A stretch of DNA of 24,656 bases from Candidatus Dojkabacteria bacterium (GTDB lineage: Bacteria > Patescibacteriota > Dojkabacteria > CALFHW01), in NCBI GenBank assembly GCA_048615025.1, contig JBMCLZ010000001.1, forward strand, positions 1-24,656. The letters are read 5' to 3'. Shown here piece after piece: positions 10,316 through 20,845 of this stretch (within the stretch, counting starts at the first letter, position 1; each line of letters opens with the position of its first letter). The translations under genes were made by a program, and so were the position numbers. Below the pieces are notes generated by a model. It saw nothing but the letters and a program-made list of their open reading frames with translations, ran no database searches and had not been told where the DNA came from.

Positions 10316-11650
10316 ATGAGAAGGAAGTTGTCGCTGTTTGCAATCTTTGCTTGTCTTGTTATTACCTTTAACCTATTCGTTATCGCAGCTCCCAATATCG
10401 ACTTCTACATAGAGGAGTACACACTTGCCATTGCCAAACTTACAGGTCTTTGGGGGTTCGTGTTGCTTGGGATCACGTTCTTTTTGTCTGGCAGGTGGGC
10501 AGTTGTCGACTATGCTTTCGAGGGGCAAGATCAGTCGTATAAGTGGCATCATAACCTTGGGCGTTTTGCACTAGCGGTGACGCTCCTGCACCCCATTTTC
10601 CTGATCTACCGGGCTATCCCAAACTCCGATAGAGTCTTAGAGCTTCTGCTTCCAGTTGGCTCTTTAGATGTTTCGTTTGGGATACTGGCACTCTACGGAT
10701 TCATTTTCCTCATAACCCTAACAGTTTTAGTCTCCCTCCCCTACCGTCTCTGGAAGGCAACGCATATTTTTATGAGCTTCCCACTGCTGCTTGCAGGTCT
10801 TCATATATTTTTTGTAGATGGGATTGTGCGTCAGGACGCGGTTCTTTTTGCCTGGATGGCTTTCTTTTTTGCCTTGGGGATTTTTTCTCAGATTTTTAGA
10901 AGGTTGATCTACCCATTCCTTTACTCTCGCACTTACAAAGTGAAAACTATCGAGCACATAGAAAAAGGCGTTATCTGGGATATTTGGCTAGAAGCAACTG
11001 GCAGGGTGCATGTATTCGCTCCAGGCCAGTATTTTTTTGCAAAGTTCTATAGCAAGGGTCTTAAGCAAGACGAGCATCCGTTTAGTGTTGCTAATTTCGA
11101 CGCTAGTGGGAAGGTTGTACGGCTTGGGATTAAAAACCTAGGTGATTTTACCTCTAAGCTTAGCTCATTAAGTATTGGTGATTATGTAGAATTGATGGGC
11201 CCACACGGTGGTTTTGGAGATGCTTATCTAGAAAACCTTTTACGAGTTGAGCAAGGTAATGCGTCTTCTGAGCAAAAACATATGGTTCTTATCGGTGGTG
11301 GGATTGGTGTTACTCCGATTCTTTCTCTCTTAGACCATGCGAAGCAGAATGCTGTGCAAGCCCCCATTACTGTGTATTACTCTACAGTTAAAGCAGAGGA
11401 AGCTGTCTATGAGAAAGAGATCAAAGAAGCAATTTCTGCTCTTCCAAATGCAAGTTACATCCCCTTCCCTGAAGAGACAAAAGGCTTCTTAAGCGCAGAG
11501 CAAATCTTAGAAGACACAAAGGCAGATCCAAAAGACATTCTCGCCTTCATCTGCGGCCCCCCTGGAATGATGAGCGCGCTAAGGTCCCAGCTACTAGCCA
11601 AAGGCACCCCCTCAGCTCAGATCATCAGCGAGGATTTTGGGTTTAAGTAG
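10316..11650 (+). CDS. Ferric reductase/NOX-family flavocytochrome (TM bis-heme domain, FAD-binding domain, NAD(P)H-binding domain)
   Basis: About 6 TM helices with His pairs spaced 14 (WHHNLG...LLHP) and 13 (THIF...GLHI), as in NOX/FRD hemes. FAD motif EHPFS, GDFTSKL, GPHGGF; NAD(P)H motifs GGGIGVTP and CGPPGMM; terminal EDF. Confidence 0.9.
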   Translation: MRRKLSLFAIFACLVITFNLFVIAAPNIDFYIEEYTLAIAKLTGLWGFVLLGITFFLSGRWAVVDYAFEGQDQSYKWHHNLGRFALAVTLLHPIFLIYRAIPNSDRVLELLLPVGSLDVSFGILALYGFIFLITLTVLVSLPYRLWKATHIFMSFPLLLAGLHIFFVDGIVRQDAVLFAWMAFFFALGIFSQIFRRLIYPFLYSRTYKVKTIEHIEKGVIWDIWLEATGRVHVFAPGQYFFAKFYSKGLKQDEHPFSVANFDASGKVVRLGIKNLGDFTSKLSSLSIGDYVELMGPHGGFGDAYLENLLRVEQGNASSEQKHMVLIGGGIGVTPILSLLDHAKQNAVQAPITVYYSTVKAEEAVYEKEIKEAISALPNASYIPFPEETKGFLSAEQILEDTKADPKDILAFICGPPGMMSALRSQLLAKGTPSAQIISEDFGFK

Positions 11651-12859
11651 GGTACTTATCTTTTCTTGTTTTAGGTCTAGCTGGCTATGATTTTCGGCAA
11701 CTATCGTGACTTGTGCTAGTTTAGGAAATCCAAGTTCTGGAGGACCAACTATATCGCCTTCTCTTGCAAAAGGCTTTATTTCTTCAATCCCTTCAAGGTT
11801 ATCTGTTGCTCTGGTAAATGCAGTAAACTTACCTAGCTCATCTGCGTAGATATAGAATACCCGGACAAACCTCTTAGGCATATTTTCTCTACTTTTGAGA
11901 TTACTACCACTAATGGTGTTAACAATCCCTGTGATGTAATCAAATCCATAAGCATATTTATATAGAGTTTGCCTGAATCCTCCCATTCGTGGGTTTATCT
12001 CTATTACTCCAATTTTCTCATGCTCTTTATCATATTTAATTTCTATGTGTAATACACACATTTTTAGCTGAAACTCCTGTATTAGTTTTTCCACACTTTC
12101 TCTAATGTGCGCGACTGTTTGTTTGTCTGAACTAACTGGAGTTTGTGAAAAGTCTATAGCTAAGGAGCTTGCAATGGTTTTCTGCTCTACTAGTGGGTAT
12201 AGTTTAATTTTCCCCTCCCAGTCGACTATGGCGTCGATTGAAAACTGTTTTCCTTGAATATAATCTTCTACTAGCCATTCCGAGCTAGTCAGATTCGCAT
12301 TCTGCTTTATCTCTCTAACTGTTTTTCTTAGAGTGTCTATACTATCAATTAGAAATACTCCCTTACTCCCACTTTGATTACTTGGTTTTAAAATGAATGG
12401 CAGATCAAACTTATGTGAGATTCTTTCTAGCTCAGCTAAATTACTAATTGCTTCACTTTTGGTAATAAAATCACTATTTATCTCAGACAAGTGACCTCTA
12501 AGAGAAACCTTGTCCTTAAAAGGGGTTAATTTTTGCAATACATTTTTTGCCGGCCTTAGTGAGTATTTTTCAGCTATCTCTATCGAAGTTCTAAGATATT
12601 TCTCTTCTCTAGGTATGATTAGGCACGAGTTGGCATTAATCTCCTCAAAGAATTTTTCCAGGTTTTCTTGCTTGATAGTCAGCTCGGCTAGAGAAATGGC
12701 TTCGTATATATTTGCGGGAAAGTCAATTCTATCGAGTTTTTTGCTAGAACTTTTGTTGCTTTTATCGACGATTATATTTACTTTTATTCCTCGCTTAGCA
12801 ATTTCTCTTGCTAACTCCAGCTGGAAGTTCCCAATAAATAGTACGTGTTCAATTTTCAT
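11612..12859 (-). CDS. ATP-grasp ligase, L-amino-acid ligase / ATP-grasp_4-like
   Basis: 415 aa. FKDKVSLR, FILKPSNQSGSKGV, WLVEDYIQG, LHIEIK...GVIEINPRMGG, plus a C-terminal domain like that of L-amino-acid ligases. Confidence 0.82.
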   Translation of the reverse strand: MKIEHVLFIGNFQLELAREIAKRGIKVNIIVDKSNKSSSKKLDRIDFPANIYEAISLAELTIKQENLEKFFEEINANSCLIIPREEKYLRTSIEIAEKYSLRPAKNVLQKLTPFKDKVSLRGHLSEINSDFITKSEAISNLAELERISHKFDLPFILKPSNQSGSKGVFLIDSIDTLRKTVREIKQNANLTSSEWLVEDYIQGKQFSIDAIVDWEGKIKLYPLVEQKTIASSLAIDFSQTPVSSDKQTVAHIRESVEKLIQEFQLKMCVLHIEIKYDKEHEKIGVIEINPRMGGFRQTLYKYAYGFDYITGIVNTISGSNLKSRENMPKRFVRVFYIYADELGKFTAFTRATDNLEGIEEIKPFAREGDIVGPPELGFPKLAQVTIVAENHSQLDLKQEKISTLLKPKILADDLS

Positions 12860-12861
12860 GC

Positions 12862-13644
12862 TCAGAAGAGTAATTTTGCCGGGTTAGTTTGTGTAAGCTT
12901 AGTATAAGCGTTAAACTGCGGGCTTCTGTTGTATTCAATCAGATACAAACTGCCAGAAGTTGTTTTAGCAATATCTAGCCCGATCATTTCGTAGTTAATC
13001 CCGCTCTCTTCAGCAAGTTTTGTAAGCACCATAGTAAATTGCTTGAGTTCTGAGGAAACTTCAGTTGCATCAGTAACTGCTAGTTTATTATATTCTGCTT
13101 TACTTCTTTTTATCCCAGCCAGAGGGAGTACGTTACCGGCAACTATCATAACTCTATATTCAGTCTGGATATCTAATTTGTCTTGAATGATGTACCCACT
13201 CTCCGAGTGCGGTAGCTTCTCAGAACTAAAGTATATGCCTTTAGATCTCGAACTAATTCTCTCTTTAATTAGTTCCGACCCATTAATCGGTTCCCCTTCT
13301 TCTTGGTCGTAAATAGTTGTCTTTGGCATGTAATCCCGAAAAACTTGATATTGCCTCCACTTGTCTTCAAAAAATATATCCTCGGTTTTCTCTAAGTTGT
13401 CTATCACCTTGATATTTTTGCTAGCACTCAATTTTTGGAATATCTTCTCTATCGTTGTCCTCACTTCTTCTAGCGGTCTCCCTGTGTTGAAAGGGTCTCT
13501 TAGATAGAGAACATCATCGTCATCTATCTCGTGTTCTTGCTCGCCGAAATAACTTAACTTGAACTCATGGTTTTCTCTGATTGCTTTCTCAAGCAGACCT
13601 ATAGATAGATCTTCTTCTGTTGTAATTACATGGATCTTACTCAT
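12862..13644 (-). CDS. RimK/LysX-like ATP-grasp ligase
   Basis: 260 aa. EDKWRQ, IKERISSRSKGI, YIIQDKL, EYRVMIV, MIGLDI...LYLIEYNRSPQF (cf. RimK G.D...LEVN.SPG). ATGA overlap with the upstream gene and a 2-nt gap to the downstream gene. Confidence 0.78.
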   Translation of the reverse strand: MSKIHVITTEEDLSIGLLEKAIRENHEFKLSYFGEQEHEIDDDDVLYLRDPFNTGRPLEEVRTTIEKIFQKLSASKNIKVIDNLEKTEDIFFEDKWRQYQVFRDYMPKTTIYDQEEGEPINGSELIKERISSRSKGIYFSSEKLPHSESGYIIQDKLDIQTEYRVMIVAGNVLPLAGIKRSKAEYNKLAVTDATEVSSELKQFTMVLTKLAEESGINYEMIGLDIAKTTSGSLYLIEYNRSPQFNAYTKLTQTNPAKLLF

Positions 13645-14501
13645 AATAAATCATATTCAATTAGTTTTAATTCATTAATACCAAACTTACCAGTCATCAG
13701 ATCCTCAATGCTATGTTTTTCTAGTAGTTTATTCACAATTGCAAAACCGATCTTGTATGCAGATCCCTTTGGGTATGCTCCAGGCAATCGCCCATCTATG
13801 AAGCCTCTTTTCACTCTCATTGTTGTAATGAATAATTCATTAGGGCTAGTGTGGGGGTATTGCCCCCCCAAAAGATGAAATGTTTCGAGGAAAGAGTGCT
13901 TTTTTGCAGTTATGACTGCTAAGTGCCTTGATCTATATCTATCCCAGACTTCTTTACTTAGCAGACCTTCCTTCCATTCTGAGTATACTGCTAGTCCCTC
14001 TTCCAAGAGAATATAGTCTGGTAGGATTGCATTTTTGATTAATGGATTGTTGGAGTAATTTGCCTTTACGCTTCTTAATACATGTGTCCCGATTTCGTGG
14101 ACAAGTAGCCTTCTAAATTGCAGCTCTGTTCTTTTTACTTCAATTCCTACTTGAATGGCCTTGTTGTCTTGCGATACAAAGATGTTGTAGGGCCTTTTAT
14201 CTGATATGTCTGCCTTCCACCCCTCAAATCTATCATCATTTCTCAAAGCTTGATTAAATCTATCCTTAAGTTGCTGGGCATTTAGCATTGGGGAGTTTAT
14301 GTGTTTCTCAGAGGGGAGTTCGCTTAGATCCGGAAAGTATTTCTCTAATTCTTCTACAACATCTTCTGAGTAATCCCATCTGTAGTTAGCATCCATGATC
14401 TCCTGTGTTAGTTGCCCCGTACCATAAGTTTGGGAAAGTTTATAGCGTGATTTTGTTGTATCCAGAAGATCTATGAAATAACTCTCTAGATCTTCTGGCA
14501 A
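13641..14501 (-). CDS. DUF1704 / MATCAP-type (tyrosine/phenylalanine carboxypeptidase domain) zinc metallopeptidase
   Basis: LLVHEIGTHVLR (HExxxH), LLEEGLAVYSE (EGLA third-ligand motif), TMRVKRG, GAYPKGSAYKIG, LMTGKF. TTG start; the true N-terminus is uncertain (see findings). Confidence 0.85.
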   Translation of the reverse strand: MPEDLESYFIDLLDTTKSRYKLSQTYGTGQLTQEIMDANYRWDYSEDVVEELEKYFPDLSELPSEKHINSPMLNAQQLKDRFNQALRNDDRFEGWKADISDKRPYNIFVSQDNKAIQVGIEVKRTELQFRRLLVHEIGTHVLRSVKANYSNNPLIKNAILPDYILLEEGLAVYSEWKEGLLSKEVWDRYRSRHLAVITAKKHSFLETFHLLGGQYPHTSPNELFITTMRVKRGFIDGRLPGAYPKGSAYKIGFAIVNKLLEKHSIEDLMTGKFGINELKLIEYDLL

Positions 14502-14568
14502 GTTTACATATTCTTAACATGTCAGATATTTCTTCCGAAAGGTCGTAGATAGCTTGTTTTTGTGTCTC

Positions 14569-14577
14569 TGTTATACT
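14569..14577 (+). promoter_or_regulatory. Extended -10 element TGtTATACT, 8 nt upstream of the PRTase ATG
   Basis: TG at 14569-14570, TATACT at 14572-14577, ATG at 14586. No SD motif. Confidence 0.55.
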
Positions 14578-14585
14578 TTTAGTCA

Positions 14586-15008
14586 ATGAAGAATTATATC
14601 GAATTTTCGCAGATTAAGGCAGCGATTGCAGAATACGAGAAGTTAGAAGAGCTTAAGCAGTTCGAAAAGGTTATTGCTGTTACAAGAGGTGGGCTAGTTG
14701 TGGCTGGGGTATTGTCGCAACATTTAGAAACTCGCTGGTACGATGCGGCTTGTGTGAAAAGCTATAGGGGGGCAGACGATCAGGGAGAGTTGGAAATAAT
14801 CAGAGCAAACCCCACCGAAGAGAGAGTTTTGTTGGTTGAAGATGTTGTCGATACAGGCGAGACGATCCAATCTCTAAAAAAAATATATCCGAATTCGGCC
14901 GTATTTGCCCTGCATGTTAAAAAGGATAAATCAAAATTTATTCCTGACTTTTACCTATGGGAGGCAGCAGCAGATGAATGGCTTGTTTACCCATGGGAGC
15001 TAGAGTAG
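14586..15008 (+). CDS. Type I phosphoribosyltransferase, xanthine-guanine PRT (Gpt)-like
   Basis: VIAVTRGGLV, PRPP-binding VLLVEDVVDTGETI, C-terminal WLVYPWE. Confidence 0.88.
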   Translation: MKNYIEFSQIKAAIAEYEKLEELKQFEKVIAVTRGGLVVAGVLSQHLETRWYDAACVKSYRGADDQGELEIIRANPTEERVLLVEDVVDTGETIQSLKKIYPNSAVFALHVKKDKSKFIPDFYLWEAAADEWLVYPWELE

Positions 15009-15016
15009 AATTACCT

Positions 15017-15634
15017 ATGAAGTTTATTATATTTCGCCATGGACAGCGCGATAAACTACCAGGTACAGATTTCGAGATGGTACATTACCAGATTGGGCTA
15101 ACAGAGCAGGGGATTGGGGAAATCGAACTATTGGCAGAGGAGTTGAAGGCAAAATACAGGTTGAATTCAGAAAACACCCTTCTCTATTCTTCCCCAATGC
15201 CTAGAGCCGTGCAAAGTGCGGAGATCGTTAGGCAAAGATTAGGGCTTGCGAGGTTTTATCTTTCCAAGTCTTTCGAAGAAACATATATTGTGCGCGATTA
15301 CTCAGGCAGTATCGAGGAGAATATCGCCTTGGAGCATTATTACTACTCTCACCCAGACGAAGTCGATGAGCATTCAGGCTTTTCGTACAATATGCTTGTA
15401 GATCGCGTCTTTGCGCAGTTAAGAGAGATCGCCGAGCAAGAGATCGAAAATGTCCTTGTTTCTGCGCACGGCGGGGTTGTTCGGCATAGCGCGTTTAGAG
15501 TAAACCCGGAGATAAAGCCAGAAGTACACCCACCAACCTGGGACGACATCCCCACAGGAGCATATTCTGTGTTTAACTACGACAAGACTACAGATAACTT
15601 CACTCTCGAGGAGCATGCAATCAAGCCAGGGTAG
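15017..15634 (+). CDS. Histidine phosphatase superfamily protein
   Basis: MKFIIFRHG (ATG 15017 preferred over the track start at 14978), LYSSPMPRAVQSA, LVSAHGGVVR. Confidence 0.88.
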   Translation: MKFIIFRHGQRDKLPGTDFEMVHYQIGLTEQGIGEIELLAEELKAKYRLNSENTLLYSSPMPRAVQSAEIVRQRLGLARFYLSKSFEETYIVRDYSGSIEENIALEHYYYSHPDEVDEHSGFSYNMLVDRVFAQLREIAEQEIENVLVSAHGGVVRHSAFRVNPEIKPEVHPPTWDDIPTGAYSVFNYDKTTDNFTLEEHAIKPG

Positions 15635-16778
15635 GAAGGGAGCTGATAAGCTTAGGGTGCTAATGATTAACTACGAATTTCCTCCCGTTGGTGGGGGCGC
15701 AGGGAACGCATGCTACTACATGCTACGAGAGTATGCTCGGTATAAGAATCTAGAGATAGATCTTGTTACATTTTCGCCAGAGAACAGAGGTTACGTGGAA
15801 AATTTTTCAGACAATATCCGTGTGTTTTATGTAAAGGCTGGGGAGAAAAAGAATCTTCACTATTGGACCAATACCGAAATGTTACGTTGGCTTTTTGCTA
15901 GTTTAATTTTCACTAGAAAACATCTGAAAAGCAAGAGATACGATCTTATGCACTGTTGGTCTGGCTGGCCTGTAGGAGTTATTGGGCTTATACACCTTAA
16001 GAGCATGCCATATTTAGTTGCACTTCGTGGCAGTGATATTCCGGGTTATAGCCCTAGGACGAAGGCTCTAGATTGGCTTCTACTTAGATGGATTGCAAAG
16101 GTCGTTTGGGCAAGGGCTGCAGTGGTTACTGTTTTAAGTAAGGACTCTGCCAAGCTAGCTAAGAATACCAATTCGCATATAAATTTCGAAGTGATTTACA
16201 ACGGAATAGATACAACAGAATTCTACCCAGCGGAGTCGCCATTTGTCGGAGACAAGTTGCGAATGCTATTTGTGGGTAGGTTGATCCCTAGAAAAGGAAT
16301 TAGGGAGCTAGTCAGAGCATGTCAAGACTTAAAGGGGAACTTTGAGTTAAGCGTGATTGGTGCAGGTAAGCTGGAAGAAGAGATTAGTCAATTGGTAATT
16401 GATTTAAAAATGGCAGACAAAATTAAGCTTCTAGGCAGAATATCTCATGAAAAATTACCTGAAATATACCGCCAGCACGACGTTTTTGTAATGCCTTCTC
16501 ACAACGAGGCACTTGGTAATGTTACTCAGGAGGCGATTGCATCGGGGCTTGCTCTGGTCACCACAGATACAGGAGCCGCAGAGCTGTTAGATGGGAACGG
16601 AGTAATTATTGAGAAAGAAGATGTCCCTGATCTAGCTTCAAAACTTCAGGAGTTAGTAGATGACCACGAGTTGGTTAGTAAGTATAAACAGAAGTCTGCT
16701 AAATTGGGAAGGGAAATGCTATGGCATAAGTGTTGTAGTGAATACTACGAACAGTATCTTAAGATTATAAATAAATGA
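15615..16778 (+). CDS. Glycosyltransferase family 4 (GT-B fold)
   Basis: VLMINYEFPPVGGGA, VIYNGIDTTEF, LFVGRLIPRKG, DVFVMPS...EALGNVTQEAIASG (EX7E). Confidence 0.93.
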   Translation: MQSSQGRKGADKLRVLMINYEFPPVGGGAGNACYYMLREYARYKNLEIDLVTFSPENRGYVENFSDNIRVFYVKAGEKKNLHYWTNTEMLRWLFASLIFTRKHLKSKRYDLMHCWSGWPVGVIGLIHLKSMPYLVALRGSDIPGYSPRTKALDWLLLRWIAKVVWARAAVVTVLSKDSAKLAKNTNSHINFEVIYNGIDTTEFYPAESPFVGDKLRMLFVGRLIPRKGIRELVRACQDLKGNFELSVIGAGKLEEEISQLVIDLKMADKIKLLGRISHEKLPEIYRQHDVFVMPSHNEALGNVTQEAIASGLALVTTDTGAAELLDGNGVIIEKEDVPDLASKLQELVDDHELVSKYKQKSAKLGREMLWHKCCSEYYEQYLKIINK

Positions 16779-16794
16779 ATGTTTTAGTAATTTA

Positions 16795-17451
16795 ATGAGC
16801 AATCGAAGGAACATGTTTGAAACTCAAGTAGAAAAAGAGCACTATTTTAACGCAAAATACGATAAGCTTGAACGTTTTATTTCTTACTATTATCAGGCTC
16901 AAACAGCCATAAGTACTAATCCTAAAACTATACTAGAGATTGGAGTTGGAAATAAAACTGTAACAAACTACCTAAAGCAGTTTGGCTACAGAGTTACAAC
17001 AGCAGATTTCGACGAAAGTCTTGGAGTAGATTATGTTGCTGATGTGAGGGAATTGCCAATGAATAACAAAGAGTTTGATACTACGCTTATTTTCGAAGTC
17101 TTGGAACACATTCCTTTCGAAGATTTAGACAAGGCACTCTCTGAGCTAGCACGTGTAAGTAAGAATTATGTTGTTGTTTCTTTCCCCCATTCCTGCATAA
17201 ACCTCGAATTGGGTGCTAAGTTCTCACTCCAGTTCTGGAGCAAAAAGCATTTTGTTCCGATTCGGATACCTTATTTTTTTATTAAATCATCCGTAAAGCG
17301 GAATCATCAGCATTATTGGGAGATGGGGAGAATGGATCATTCAAAAAGAAAGGTGATGCGGAAGTTTAGGGAGTATTTCGAGGTAGAAAATACTTTTCAT
17401 CCGCCTCTGAATCAAAATCATTTTTTTATGGTACTTAGACCAAAAGAGTGA
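16795..17451 (+). CDS. Class I SAM-dependent methyltransferase
   Basis: ILEIGVG (motif I), VTTADFD, VADVRELP, FEVLEHIP, HYWEMG. Confidence 0.9.
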   Translation: MSNRRNMFETQVEKEHYFNAKYDKLERFISYYYQAQTAISTNPKTILEIGVGNKTVTNYLKQFGYRVTTADFDESLGVDYVADVRELPMNNKEFDTTLIFEVLEHIPFEDLDKALSELARVSKNYVVVSFPHSCINLELGAKFSLQFWSKKHFVPIRIPYFFIKSSVKRNHQHYWEMGRMDHSKRKVMRKFREYFEVENTFHPPLNQNHFFMVLRPKE

Positions 17452-18422
17452 TGACAGTAGGATTGAAGAACCCGCTCAAGTCTAAGACTCTCAGGTTTAT
17501 ATTTAAACTGATAATCTCCTGCTCGTTACTTATCCATATATTCCGCGATTTCTCTTTGGATCTTTCTAAGCTCGAACTAACTATTTATGGATTATTCTTA
17601 CTGGCGCTTGCTTTTCTGCTGAACTTAGCTAATGCGTATTTGTCTGCATTAAGACTAAAGGCGATTACTCCATACAATTTTTCAGTTTTCTATGCATTTA
17701 AGATCACGCTTATAGGGATATTTTTTAACAATTTTTTCCCGACAAACTTTGGAGGAGATATAATTAAGGCAGGGATATTTAAAGATAAAGCTGGTGATAT
17801 GGCTCATGCGGCAGGATACATCTTCCTAGATAGGGTTATAGGTCTTAGCACACTACTACTTATTGCAGTCTTGGGTCTAAGCTATTTCGCATACCTTGGA
17901 GAGTATTTTCCTTTATTTGCATACTTAATTGTTGCACTTTTCCTTATTGCATTAACTGTACTATCTTTGTTGGTATACTTCTCCCCTAGTTTAGCTAAAC
18001 TACTATCTAAATATCCCAAACTAATTAGTTTAGGCAGGTTAAGAAAAGTAATGCAAAAAAGTAATCTACCGCTCGCTCTTTTTTATGGGTTAATTTTCCA
18101 GCTAAATACTGGTTTTGTGATTTACATTCTTTCGTTATTTCTGGGGCTTAACATATCACTTCAATATTTCATTGTTTTGATTCCAGTCTCGAATTTGCTG
18201 CTTACTATTCCAATAACTTTTAACGGATTAGGGGTTCGTGATTATATATTTCTTAATTTTTTCGAGCCATTCGCTGGAGCTGGGAGCAATCTGCTATTGC
18301 TTGCACCGCTTAACTTCGCACTAAATCTGGCGAATGCAGTTTTTGGGGCGATTTTCTATCTGCTTAACAAGAAAGGGATCGAGTTAAGTCAGAAAGAAGT
18401 TAAAGTGTCAGATCTTCCTTAA
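17448..18422 (+). CDS. Lysylphosphatidylglycerol synthase TM / UPF0104 flippase-like membrane protein
   Basis: Multiple TM helices; FFNNFFPTNFGGDIIKA, FLDRVIGL, IPITFNGLGVRD. GTG 17448 or ATG 17451, coupled to the methyltransferase stop. Confidence 0.85.
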   Translation: MMTVGLKNPLKSKTLRFIFKLIISCSLLIHIFRDFSLDLSKLELTIYGLFLLALAFLLNLANAYLSALRLKAITPYNFSVFYAFKITLIGIFFNNFFPTNFGGDIIKAGIFKDKAGDMAHAAGYIFLDRVIGLSTLLLIAVLGLSYFAYLGEYFPLFAYLIVALFLIALTVLSLLVYFSPSLAKLLSKYPKLISLGRLRKVMQKSNLPLALFYGLIFQLNTGFVIYILSLFLGLNISLQYFIVLIPVSNLLLTIPITFNGLGVRDYIFLNFFEPFAGAGSNLLLLAPLNFALNLANAVFGAIFYLLNKKGIELSQKEVKVSDLP

Positions 18423-19353
18423 GTGTGTAAAGCGGCTCGCGTCCTGAGGCGTAGTAGTTTTTAATTACTAGATCGATAATTATCCCAAAGATGAACAGCT
18501 GAGTGCCTGTTATTACTAGGAATACTGCCATCAGTGGCCAGATAGAGGTAGATAAGGAGACTAGACCTAAAATTCTAAGGATTGCGAGGGTAAATAGCAT
18601 TACTGCGCCGAATAGGCCTAGAAAGACTCCAGTTACCCCAAATAGGTGCAGCGGTCTGTCGTAGTATTTTTTCCAGAACCAAATCTGCCACATGTCTACA
18701 AAACCACGAAACGCTTTACTCCAGTTGTATGAGCTTTTGCCGCTTGTTCTTGGTGCGTGCTCTATAACCATTTCTCCCACTTCGAAGCCACGCCACCTAA
18801 GAATTGCAACTAAGTAGCGGTGCATTTCTCCGCTCAGGTCTAGACCCTCGAAACACTCTCTGCGGTAAACTTTAAGAGTGCAGCCAAGATCGTGCACTCC
18901 TGGGTTTAGAACTTGTTTGCGCATCCAGCCACCAAACTTCGAAAGATTACGAATAATAACATTATCTTTCCTCTTTTTACGCCAGCCAGAAACAACGTCT
19001 AACCCTTCTTTTTCTAATTTTTCGACGAGTTTTGGGATTTCCTCTGGAGGGTTTTGTAGGTCTGAATCTATCGTAATTATAAGATCTCCCTTTGCTGCTT
19101 TGATGCCAGCATCGAGCGCAATAGACTGCGTAGTTCTGTATTGCATCATGGGAAGGCGCATTACTAGTACTCTGGCATTTTTTAGCTCTTTTAGTTTAGC
19201 CACCGTATTATCTTTAGAACGGTTTTCGACATAGATAATCTCGAAACTTTTCCCCATGTTTTTGAGAGTTTTAGTTAGCCTCTCGTGCAAAGTCACAATA
19301 TTGCCCTCTTCGTTATGAACTGGAGTAACAACCGAGATGTCTATATTTGCCAT
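18400..19353 (-). CDS. GT2 polyisoprenyl-phosphate glycosyltransferase (GtrB/ArnC/DPM-like) with two C-terminal TM helices
   Basis: Start at ATG 19353 (MANIDISVVTPVHNEEGN); IITIDSDLQNPPEEIP (DxD), DVVSGWRKKRKD, DLGCTLKVYR, EMHRYL, HAPRTSGKSSY, RPLHLFG followed by two TMs. Confidence 0.92.
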   Translation of the reverse strand: MANIDISVVTPVHNEEGNIVTLHERLTKTLKNMGKSFEIIYVENRSKDNTVAKLKELKNARVLVMRLPMMQYRTTQSIALDAGIKAAKGDLIITIDSDLQNPPEEIPKLVEKLEKEGLDVVSGWRKKRKDNVIIRNLSKFGGWMRKQVLNPGVHDLGCTLKVYRRECFEGLDLSGEMHRYLVAILRWRGFEVGEMVIEHAPRTSGKSSYNWSKAFRGFVDMWQIWFWKKYYDRPLHLFGVTGVFLGLFGAVMLFTLAILRILGLVSLSTSIWPLMAVFLVITGTQLFIFGIIIDLVIKNYYASGREPLYTLKEDLTL

Positions 19354-19387
19354 ACCCGAAGTATAGCAAATAATGTACAATTTCGTG
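19354..19387. promoter_or_regulatory. Bidirectional leaderless-type promoter region between the GT2 and GT-C genes
   Basis: Plus strand: TACAAT 19376-19381, 6 nt, ATG 19388. Minus strand: TG-c-TATACT 19368-19360, 6 nt, ATG 19353. Confidence 0.6.
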
Positions 19388-20845
19388 ATGAGTAAGAAAA
19401 ATTGGTTTGTAGTAAGCTTGTTAGCTCTAATAATTATTTTAGCAGGTATAGTCCGTGCTTGGGGAATAGATATGAGCTCGATGCAGATGGACGAGTATTT
19501 TCATATCGCAACAGCACAATCGATTCTAGAAGGTCATGGTGGAGAGGTATTTCGTGAAGGTCATCCTAGAATATATATGAGAGCGTTTTTACTTACGCTA
19601 ATTATCACGCCATTCCAGGCAGTCGCCCCTGAGTTTGCAGCAATTCCTTCTATTTTGTTTAGCCTTATTTCTATTGTTTTGATTTACCTAATCGGTAGCA
19701 AGTTCTCGAAATCTGTTGGGCTCATTGCAGCTTATGCGTTTGCTTTTTCTACACTAGCTGTAGCGATGGGCAGCTATATTCGTGGATACTCGCTATTTGT
19801 AATGATGCAACTTGCACTAGTTTACGCATTAATGCAAATCGATTGGAGCCTTAAGGGAAAATATTCTTACCCAGATAAGTGGTTTCGCGTAGCCACAATT
19901 CTCGCCTTACCTAGCCTATACTTTCTCGCAGATCCCAGAAGCACTTTTACAAGTACAATTGTAATTCTGCTTGCAGTCCCAGTATTTTTCGTTTGGCATA
20001 ACCTAAGGTGTCTGAAATATGTCTTGCCAATATCTGCTGCTATTCTAGCGATCGGATTCGCAATTGTAGGTACTGTTGGGCGCCTTGGCGGACAAGAGCA
20101 TGTTAATCTTTATCCAATTTATAACTCAGAATTCTTGGGCTATTTCTTTTCCGGCCTTCACACAATAGATATCCCCTGGATCTCGTTGCTGTTCACCCCA
20201 TTTTTTCTTTTGGGGATAGCTACACTCTTAAGAAGCAAAGATCAATCTCTAAAGCTAATTAGTGTTGTTACATTTACATTTTTAGTTTTCTACGGATTTT
20301 ACTTTAACCGATATTTCGAAGAGCGTTATATTTATTATCTGATTCCATTTGCCCTAATTACTTTCGCTGTTGGAGTGGAAAGTCTTGCAAAGAAAGTTGC
20401 TACTAATCGTTTAGCTACCGCTCTTATAATATTTCCAATCTTGATCCTAATGCTATTGCCTTTTTTTCCTAACCCAAGAGAGAACGCCACAGAAATCAAA
20501 CAAGAGAAGATAGAATTTCAAGAACCGTTTTTTACAATTCAGAATTATAATTTAAAGGTAGATGAGCAGACAGCATTTATTACATCTCACCAGTTCGTGC
20601 TAGCCTACTATTTTGACCTCTTCAAGAGTGACCGGCTATATTCTTTCGACCAAAGGGTGCCCGATTTCAGCGCGGACAACAGAAAAGTGCTGCAAGAGTA
20701 CGAACAGGGGTACGTCGTTGTTGAGCGAGCATGGAGGACTGATGCGGTTACAAAGGCTAATCCTGAGTTTAGTGGGGTGCAGTTGTGCGATATAGCCAGC
20801 GACTCGACCTATATTATTAAAGGTTGGGGAAGAAGTTGCGACTAA
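19388..20845 (+). CDS. GT-C fold membrane glycosyltransferase (ArnT/PMT-like, GT39/GT83 type)
   Basis: First TM followed by an external loop with MQMDEYFH (DE motif), YIRGYSL, about 11-13 TMs, EERYIYYLIP and a soluble C-terminal domain. ATG 19388 preferred over 19373. Confidence 0.85.
   Translation: MSKKNWFVVSLLALIIILAGIVRAWGIDMSSMQMDEYFHIATAQSILEGHGGEVFREGHPRIYMRAFLLTLIITPFQAVAPEFAAIPSILFSLISIVLIYLIGSKFSKSVGLIAAYAFAFSTLAVAMGSYIRGYSLFVMMQLALVYALMQIDWSLKGKYSYPDKWFRVATILALPSLYFLADPRSTFTSTIVILLAVPVFFVWHNLRCLKYVLPISAAILAIGFAIVGTVGRLGGQEHVNLYPIYNSEFLGYFFSGLHTIDIPWISLLFTPFFLLGIATLLRSKDQSLKLISVVTFTFLVFYGFYFNRYFEERYIYYLIPFALITFAVGVESLAKKVATNRLATALIIFPILILMLLPFFPNPRENATEIKQEKIEFQEPFFTIQNYNLKVDEQTAFITSHQFVLAYYFDLFKSDRLYSFDQRVPDFSADNRKVLQEYEQGYVVVERAWRTDAVTKANPEFSGVQLCDIASDSTYIIKGWGRSCD

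Follow-up and report, generated by a model that had tools for sequence, protein, structure and literature searches.

The stretch of DNA analyzed here as a whole (24,656 nucleotides (nt); positions 1 to 24,656 of contig JBMCLZ010000001.1, assembly GCA_048615025.1, from Candidatus Dojkabacteria bacterium), hereafter the window, harbors on its minus strand, at 11612-14501, three open reading frames (ORFs) encoding successively a MATCAP-type (DUF1704) zinc peptidase (P0001), a 260-residue ATP-grasp ligase (P0002) and a 415-residue ATP-grasp ligase (P0003). The three genes form one translationally coupled operon, and the combination of a MATCAP-like peptidase with several ATP-grasp ligases is a strongly conserved theme in Patescibacteria. 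It can be hypothesized, with a probability of roughly 0.5, that the operon is an add-and-trim module acting on the C-terminal carboxylate of some peptide or protein.

To our knowledge, MATCAP-family enzymes have been known only as tubulin-tail erasers, and we know of no bacterial relative with assigned biochemistry. In many lineages of Patescibacteria (candidate phyla radiation), MATCAP-like peptidases are linked, and sometimes fused, to ATP-grasp amino-acid ligases. As three small soluble proteins, the trio offers an expressible system for asking what the bacterial MATCAP homologues cut. It also bears on what an orphan family of about 260-residue ATP-grasps makes, on whether ligase/carboxypeptidase writer-eraser pairs predate eukaryotes, and on non-ribosomal peptide building or regulation in ultra-small symbiotic bacteria.

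The operon, with its upstream region, is composed as follows:

13641..14501, minus strand: predicted MATCAP/DUF1704 HExxxH zinc carboxypeptidase (P0001), 286 amino acids from TTG 14501, PF08014
12862..13644, minus strand: putative RimK/LysX-class ATP-grasp amide ligase (P0002, P2fam), 260 amino acids, assigned from fold and invariant residues
11612..12859, minus strand: putative L-amino-acid-ligase (LAL)-like ATP-grasp (P0003), 415 amino acids, ATP-grasp_4 and weak LAL_C2
13641..13644, minus strand: stop/start overlap (ATGA, 4 nt) of the peptidase gene with the first ligase gene, read in the sequence (ttATGAgt)
12860..12861, minus strand: 2-nt spacer (gc) that separates the first ligase gene's TGA from the ATG of the second, read in the sequence
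14502..14585, no strand: divergent intergenic region of 84 nt, the sole possible site of an operon promoter

The tight coupling noted in a preliminary description of this DNA can thus be read directly at both junctions. A consensus scan gave neither a convincing promoter or terminator within the operon nor a minus-strand promoter-like site in the 84-nt region, beyond which lies a divergent plus-strand gene starting at 14586.

Domains, folds and catalytic residues

Regarding the peptidase, P0001 exceeds the cut-off of the MATCAP family PF08014 (66.6 bits, cut-off 27, E 2.6e-18, profile positions 112-329 of 365) and fails that of the QEGLA equivalog TIGR02421 (63.6 bits vs 338.65). Its motifs HEIGTH (residues 135-140) and EEGLA (residues 167-171) contain H135, E136, H140, E167, E168 and G169, all invariant in 42 homologues; R229, K231 and R232 are nearly so. 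In TMCP1 and TMCP2, mutation of the Glu of HExxxH, or of a Glu of the EEGLA region about 35 residues downstream, yields inactive enzymes, and the characterized members of the family are carboxypeptidases acting on protein C-terminal tails (PMC10499314). Searched against the PDB, the profile of the 42-homologue family retrieves the human KIAA0895L/MATCAP structures (E 5e-38). The AlphaFold (AF2) model of P0001 has a predicted local distance difference test score (pLDDT) of 87.7 and a predicted template modelling score (pTM) of 0.87, and its only Foldseek matches in the PDB at E<0.001 are human MATCAP 7z5g and 7z6s (probability 1.0, TMq 0.58-0.62). The earlier reading of the HEIGTH/EEGLA metallopeptidase as a DUF1704 protein is therefore upheld by both profile and fold.

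P0002 displays weak Pfam matches in its C-terminal part, to YheCD, R2K (R2K_2/3) and RimK. The match to RimK (PF08443) is borderline and restricted to the C-terminal half (21.3 bits, cut-off 21), and the cut-off of the RimK model TIGR00768 is failed (23.5 bits vs 143.4). At E<1e-10, an exhaustive HMMER scan gathers 128 representative clusters, of about 260 residues in almost every case. Judged from these sequences, P0002 belongs to a distinct family of about 260-residue RimK/LysX-class ATP-grasps, named P2fam here, in which K95, K127, R129, E162, R164 and the Mg triad D224/E237/N239 are invariant. Its AF2 model (pLDDT 92.8) exhibits the three-domain ATP-grasp fold, most similar to ArgX/LysX (TMq 0.73), then to the graspetide cyclases PsnB and MdnB, then to RimK bound to RpsF. 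As modelled, the nearest structural relatives (ArgX/LysX, RimK and PsnB) all use protein or peptide substrates, and the preliminary assignment to the RimK-like ATP-grasps is in keeping with these folds, with the weak RimK match and with the invariant catalytic residues.

The longer ligase, P0003, is matched by ATP-grasp_4 (PF13535; 81.4 bits, cut-off 27, E 7e-23) and weakly by LAL_C2 (17.4 bits, cut-off 29.4, E 0.0056), a model for which its orthologue in the Patescibacteria genome G430 scores above the cut-off (32.6 bits). Among PDB sequences, P0003 matches the PurD-like ATP-grasp 4dim (2e-8) and, weakly, BacD (2e-4) and the L-amino-acid ligases 3vot, 4wd3 and BL00235, the LAL matches spanning 2e-4 to 2e-3. 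K117, K158, E198, E273, E287 and R291 are invariant, and N289 is nearly so. These matches agree with the L-amino-acid-ligase likeness first ascribed to it. No signal peptide or transmembrane segment was seen by reading the sequences of P0001-P0003, and all three proteins look cytoplasmic.

Of the profiles named in the preliminary description, PF08014 and ATP-grasp_4 are clearly matched and RimK is borderline; the tubulin ligase profile TTL (PF03133) is reached by neither ligase, P0002 having no match and P0003 staying under the cut-off (15.1 bits vs 20.1), and the P2fam profile reaches TTLL6 at E about 0.08-0.3 only. The proposed structural likenesses fared better, with MATCAP (7z5g/7z6s) found for P0001 and ArgX/LysX, PsnB and RimK for P0002.

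Linkage of MATCAP-like peptidases with ATP-grasp ligases

The peptidase is present in a single copy in the genome to which the window belongs (G000; 788 kb, 118 contigs, about 80% complete), according to a genome-wide search, and homologues occur in 23 of the 61 related genomes. Scanning one genome for each species provided 80 peptidase loci, in which ORFs were called stop-to-stop by ourselves and neighbors were detected with our own query set, apart from Pfam/NCBIfam spot checks; many of the compared loci come from related genomes and hence are not independent. A separate ATP-grasp gene lies within 3 kb of the peptidase gene in 53 of these 80 loci. The gene directly upstream of the peptidase gene, often overlapping it, is mreB in 51 of the 80, nearly all from Dojkabacteria, and 47 of these 51 also have an ATP-grasp gene within 3 kb.

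In Dojkabacteria, about 50 loci (within L034-L113, e.g., L021:2751-10138 and L105:6385-13772) share a six-gene block made of mreB, the peptidase gene and four convergent ATP-grasp genes. The latter encode an RloC-like ATPgrasp_ST (TIGR02291-like) ligase with a retropepsin-like C-terminus, a RimK/MptN-like ligase and two cyanophycin-synthetase-like ligases of 332 and 571 residues, which also match the N-acetylglutaminylglutamine synthetase model. RloC-type ligases (TIGR02291/ATPgrasp_ST) are the commonest partner of MATCAP-like peptidases in Patescibacteria, and the two can be combined in one polypeptide: fusion ORFs of about 785 residues, with an ATPgrasp_ST-type and a MATCAP-type part, occur in seven of the 80 loci (L042, L056, L067, L074, L087, L096 and L103, called from phmmer and tblastn), in Magasanikbacteria and Peribacteria, and also in metagenomes. 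A further fusion, obtained from the ligase search (L200:7546-9909, minus strand, 788 residues), was confirmed with Pfam/NCBIfam as TIGR02291-type plus TIGR02421-type. In L200, as in the differently arranged L206, mreB again abuts the module.

Closer to the window, the same family includes three other genomes, and in two of these (G002 and G003) the peptidase gene adjoins a P0003-like ligase gene; P0003 orthologues also adjoin the peptidase gene in G430 and in the metagenome locus L164. The ORFs of about 260 residues standing beside the peptidase gene in G002 and G003 were considered as P0002 homologues and rejected: they belong to another family, without Pfam or PDB match. This replacing family (L019:4498-5289, minus; L026:9912-10670, plus; L043:2149-2997, minus), found in G002, G003 and G049, gave no Pfam, NCBIfam or PDB sequence match.

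Approached from the side of the 260-residue ligase, a metagenome search with P2fam returned 69 loci. A MATCAP-like ORF lies within 3 kb in eight of 16 non-redundant close P2fam clusters, another ATP-grasp in 12 and neither in three, the chance level for a MATCAP-like neighbor being about 0.2%, a rough estimate for a gene occurring at most once per genome of about 1 Mb. A distant P2fam subgroup is solitary and has no conserved neighbors. L164, a metagenome contig of 1.7 kb, carries a MATCAP fragment and a P2fam gene facing a convergent P0003-like gene. The G430 cluster comprises P2fam, a RimK-like ligase, a divergent MATCAP-like protein and a P0003-like LAL, and locus L115 comprises P2fam, a 459-residue MATCAP-like protein, a 364-residue MATCAP, a RimK-like ligase and a 366-residue MATCAP-like protein. 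The 459-residue protein (L115:3588-4967; MATCAP profile at 97% hhalign probability) and its 366-residue homologue (L115:6996-8096) flank the canonical 364-residue MATCAP and the RimK-like gene. Both are divergent and have no HExxxH, so that these paralogues may be pseudo-peptidases or substrate-binding subunits.

That the theme recurs in several gene orders and as a fusion strongly indicates a shared pathway. Other surroundings of the MATCAP homologues were also seen. In DPANN archaea (L051, L059 and L104) the gene is divergent from that of the Mg2+ transporter CorA, beyond which lies ThrRS; in Micromonospora the homologues adjoin pentapeptide-repeat proteins; and in cyanobacteria (L002, L003, L036 and L040) the homologue directly follows a large AAA_16/TPR STAND NTPase, Planktothrix being alone among those seen in having a RimK-like ATP-grasp gene convergent with the peptidase gene. 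The closest word-based matches of P0001 are cyanobacterial proteins located beside AAA_16/TPR STAND NTPases and having no ATP-grasp neighbor.

Proposed reaction, candidate targets and genomic setting

ATP-grasp enzymes convert a carboxylate into an acyl-phosphate that is then attacked by an amine, and MATCAP-family enzymes remove C-terminal residues in a zinc-dependent manner. For the trio, we infer a chemistry, an order of steps and a protein- or peptide-tail substrate as follows. The two ATP-grasps would convert a carboxyl group into an acyl-phosphate at the expense of ATP and couple an amino acid to this group, the 260-residue RimK/LysX-class enzyme most likely acting on a peptide or protein C-terminus and the LAL-like enzyme making or extending a short alpha-peptide. 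The MATCAP-type zinc carboxypeptidase would then remove C-terminal residues and thereby set the length of the tail, reverse the modification or release a product, and the acceptor would be encoded outside the operon. This add-and-trim model is proposed because the genes are coupled (4-nt overlap, 2-nt gap), because all three proteins keep their catalytic residues, with confident folds for the peptidase and the 260-residue ligase, and because the peptidase-ligase linkage recurs in several independent arrangements. A peptide or protein acceptor is favored since the fold of P0002 is ArgX/LysX/RimK/PsnB-like and since the characterized MATCAPs act on protein tails.

Several points weigh against this proposal. 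Free amino acids are what LAL-type ligases classically join, a point in favor of a small-molecule product. No target candidate was found among S6, a LysW-like carrier, the MreB tails and the RloB-like protein, all of which were looked at. Orthologues of P2fam at E<1e-80 occur in only three of 401 sampled Patescibacteria genomes. The co-occurrence in other genomes that had been anticipated holds for the peptidase/ATP-grasp linkage, including the fusion, but the exact trio is rare, being seen in L164 and, with extra genes, in G430. The third partner swaps by lineage: in G002 and G003 the unrelated family of about 260 residues takes its place, and elsewhere a ligase of RloC-like or RimK-like type does so; the MATCAP homologues of DPANN archaea and Micromonospora, and most of those of cyanobacteria, have no ATP-grasp neighbor. 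Finally, P0001 lacks the N-terminal 75-110 residues or so of its family (PxNxxxEKxxF..YNPQFxY; profile positions 1-111), and a peptidase shortened in this way may be impaired, which makes its activity less certain than the preliminary description assumed.

The missing motif is kept in the G002 and G003 orthologues, in Dojkabacteria and in human MATCAP. Its presence upstream, or in another frame, is ruled out: with an in-frame stop at 14514-14516 and the divergent gene 84 nt upstream, there is no coding room for it. The TTG start at 14501 has no obvious Shine-Dalgarno sequence and is preceded by the in-frame stop four codons upstream. An in-frame ATG at 14396 (Met36), with AGGAG 3 nt upstream (window 14394-14404), would give 251 residues, and either TTG 14501 or ATG 14396 may be the true start. 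It could be argued from the lost segment, the nearby stop and divergent gene, the lack of a clear ribosome-binding site and the MATCAP-like paralogues without HExxxH in L115 that the locus is decaying or rewired, the peptidase being a relic that has been truncated at the 5' end and has hardly any activity or none, the ligases alone working on an unrelated substrate and the adjacency being simply inherited. However, the frame of 286 codons is unbroken and retains all of the invariant catalytic residues, the fold prediction is confident over the full length, residues 1-35 still align to homologues and the stop/start overlap with the next gene is preserved; decay is an improbable explanation.

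A free, non-protein short peptide, i.e., a di- or oligopeptide osmolyte, a storage peptide or a metabolite, is a serious rival to the protein tail as the product of the operon, although a rather unlikely one. In this scenario, condensation of free amino acids would fall to the LAL-like enzyme and extension of the product to the RimK-class enzyme, and the carboxypeptidase would break the product down or recycle it. P0003 does resemble BacD, BL00235 and 4wd3, which take free amino acids, two of the ligases linked to the peptidase in Dojkabacteria are of the cyanophycin-synthetase type and match the N-acetylglutaminylglutamine synthetase model, and neither the operon nor its flanks include a gene for an acceptor protein. 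In metabolite synthesis, successive ligations are often the work of linked ATP-grasp ligases (PMC4431377), and RimK itself produces free poly-alpha-glutamate in vitro (PMC10375531). Such a pathway is harder to reconcile with the closest folds of P0002, which act on protein or peptide carriers, with the protein-tail activity of the characterized MATCAP enzymes and with the gene content of the operon, in which no exporter, amidotransferase or tailoring enzyme is encoded. As annotation of the neighborhood confirms, the operon holds no substrate or exporter gene, as was already said in the preliminary description. The writer/eraser interpretation given there is sustained by the domains, the coupling and the linkage, and these data do not separate a protein-tail cycle from the synthesis and turnover of an oligopeptide; of the two ligases, one may initiate and the other elongate, as was also suggested there.

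With regards to possible acceptors of the add-and-trim module, ribosomal protein S6 is ruled out, the G000 protein (contig C81) ending in ...IIINEKDL and not in Glu-Glu. A crude genome-wide regular-expression search of G000 for a LysW-like or acidic-tailed small carrier gave nothing convincing. The MreB tail is likewise rejected, no acidic or Tyr C-terminus being present in about 50 Dojkabacteria MreBs, and so is an RloB-like seven-transmembrane (7TM) protein with terminal Glu, the G000 copy ending in ERDEN and lying on another contig. No support was found for a host-cell target. A RiPP (peptide made by the ribosome and modified after translation) or graspetide system is ruled out, as no space exists for a precursor ORF (junctions of -4 nt and +2 nt, flanks occupied), and so is anti-phage defence, the three proteins having no PADLOC match.

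On contig C25 of G000 (L208:6803-8856, minus strand), the contig end truncates an RloB-like 7TM_transglut gene whose product has the C-terminus ...ERDEN. This gene overlaps by 7 nt that of an RloC-like ATPgrasp_ST carrying a fused retropepsin-like (PF05618) domain; the pair is on a different contig from the trio. MreB-like fragments are found at contig ends (C7:3-719, C75:3-887 and C56:2-364), which suggests either that mreB occurs in more than one paralogous copy or that the assembly breaks at this gene; downstream of the C7 copy lies an 801-residue ORF without Pfam match.

The other genes of the window are of housekeeping and envelope type, namely those for MurT, DnaE, FtsW, MsrB, a cytochrome b5-domain protein, a NOX-like reductase and several glycosyltransferases. 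At 11612-11650 the LAL-like ligase gene and a convergent plus-strand NOX-like flavocytochrome gene overlap by 39 nt at their 3' ends. The divergent set at 14586-20845 encodes a small phosphoribosyltransferase (PRTase), a histidine-phosphatase-family protein, a GT4 glycosyltransferase, a methyltransferase, LPG_synthase_TM, a GT2 glycosyltransferase and a GT22/PMT-like membrane glycosyltransferase, and it looks like an envelope glycoconjugate pathway. A conserved tie of the trio to this PRTase/phosphatase/glycosyltransferase operon is ruled out since it is not kept in G002 or G003. As no window neighbor is conserved beside the peptidase gene in these two genomes, the module is taken to consist of the three genes only.

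A role in the cell envelope, where a peptide would be built or trimmed on a wall or membrane component such as a peptidoglycan stem or a teichuronopeptide-like polymer, or on a morphogenetic protein such as MreB or an RloB-like 7TM protein, would fit a window rich in MurT, FtsW, glycosyltransferases and LPG_synthase_TM. It would also fit the position of mreB before the peptidase gene in 51 of 80 loci and beside the module in L200 and L206, and the RloB-like gene overlapping the RloC-like/retropepsin fusion on C25; in Pseudomonas, cell-morphology and osmotic phenotypes are tied to the family of RloC-like ligases (PMC11957051). It is nevertheless quite unlikely: in G000 the trio adjoins neither mreB nor the RloB/RloC pair, the envelope neighbors are not kept in G002 or G003, the three proteins look cytoplasmic, and neither the MreB C-termini, without acidic or Tyr tail, nor the RloB-like C-terminus, not ending in Glu, has the expected form.

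A broader and likewise unlikely extension of the add-and-trim model is a reversible C-terminal "tail code" in Patescibacteria, in which the substrate of several ATP-grasp writers and one MATCAP-type eraser would be a cytoskeletal or envelope protein. Because the mreB linkage recurs, MreB or one of its partners is a candidate for this role, and the trio of the window would then be, with the same low likelihood, a lineage-specific re-assortment. If true, the tail code would be the prokaryotic forerunner of the cycle in which eukaryotic tubulin is tyrosinated and glutamylated.

Comparison with known systems

A literature search found no paper joining DUF1704/MATCAP with ATP-grasp, and an earlier bioinformatic mention is possible, e.g., by Iyer et al. 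in Mol Biosyst in 2009, reportedly a survey of ATP-grasp/peptidase gene neighborhoods. The nearest named bacterial families to the peptidase and its usual partner are the "QEGLA motif protein" TIGR02421 and the "alpha-L-glutamate ligase-like protein" TIGR02291, two NCBIfam hypothetical equivalogs, mostly from Proteobacteria, that match both halves of the L200 fusion. We know of no demonstrated biochemical function for either, beyond the regulatory phenotype implied by the family name. Although the preliminary description compared the trio with the tubulin enzymes, closer bacterial precedents, which it missed, are provided by LysX-LysK, RloABC and RimK-RimB.

In the LysW pathway, an amino acid is attached to the C-terminal Glu of a carrier protein and the product is later released by a metallo-carboxypeptidase, LysK, which is an M20 enzyme unrelated to MATCAP. 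P0002 finds its best structural matches (TMq 0.73) in the ligases of this pathway, ArgX/LysX, but no LysW-like carrier or intervening modifying enzymes were found in the search of G000 or in the window. In the RloABC system of Pseudomonas aeruginosa, whose biochemistry is unknown, RloA is a retropepsin, RloB an inactive-transglutaminase 7TM protein and RloC an ATP-grasp (PMC11957051). The likeness lies in the RloC-type ligases, the usual partners of the MATCAP-like peptidases of Patescibacteria and fused to them in some lineages; the operon of the window, however, includes no RloC-type ligase, retropepsin or 7TM protein, the latter two being both present on C25 of G000.

In RimK-RimB (RimABK) from Pseudomonas, RimK adds Glu to RpsF (S6) and RimB removes it (PMC11957051; see also PMC11957791 and PMC4741518). 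As in the trio, one bacterial operon here contains both a writer, a RimK-class ATP-grasp, and an eraser, a peptidase, the target in this case being a protein C-terminal tail. The eraser is a retropepsin-like aspartic protease in RimK-RimB and a MATCAP-type zinc enzyme in the trio, which moreover has a second, LAL-like ligase; P0002 falls below the RimK cut-off of TIGR00768 and the S6 of G000 does not end in Glu-Glu.

Regarding the eukaryotic enzymes, MATCAP1/TMCP1 (KIAA0895L) and TMCP2 (KIAA0895) have the peptidase family, the fold (PF08014, 7z5g) and the HEIGTH and EEGLA motifs in common with P0001. The identity to human MATCAP is only about 19%, however, P0001 lacks the microtubule-binding regions and the N-terminal motif, and the organism has no tubulin. 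TTL/TTLL and MATCAP follow a like logic, an ATP-grasp adding C-terminal residues and a metallocarboxypeptidase removing them, but the ligases of the trio are of the RimK/LysX and LAL classes and not of the TTL family, and the genes of the trio are operon-linked. By analogy, the trio would work like RimK-RimB and like TTL/TTLL-MATCAP, but is a member of neither.

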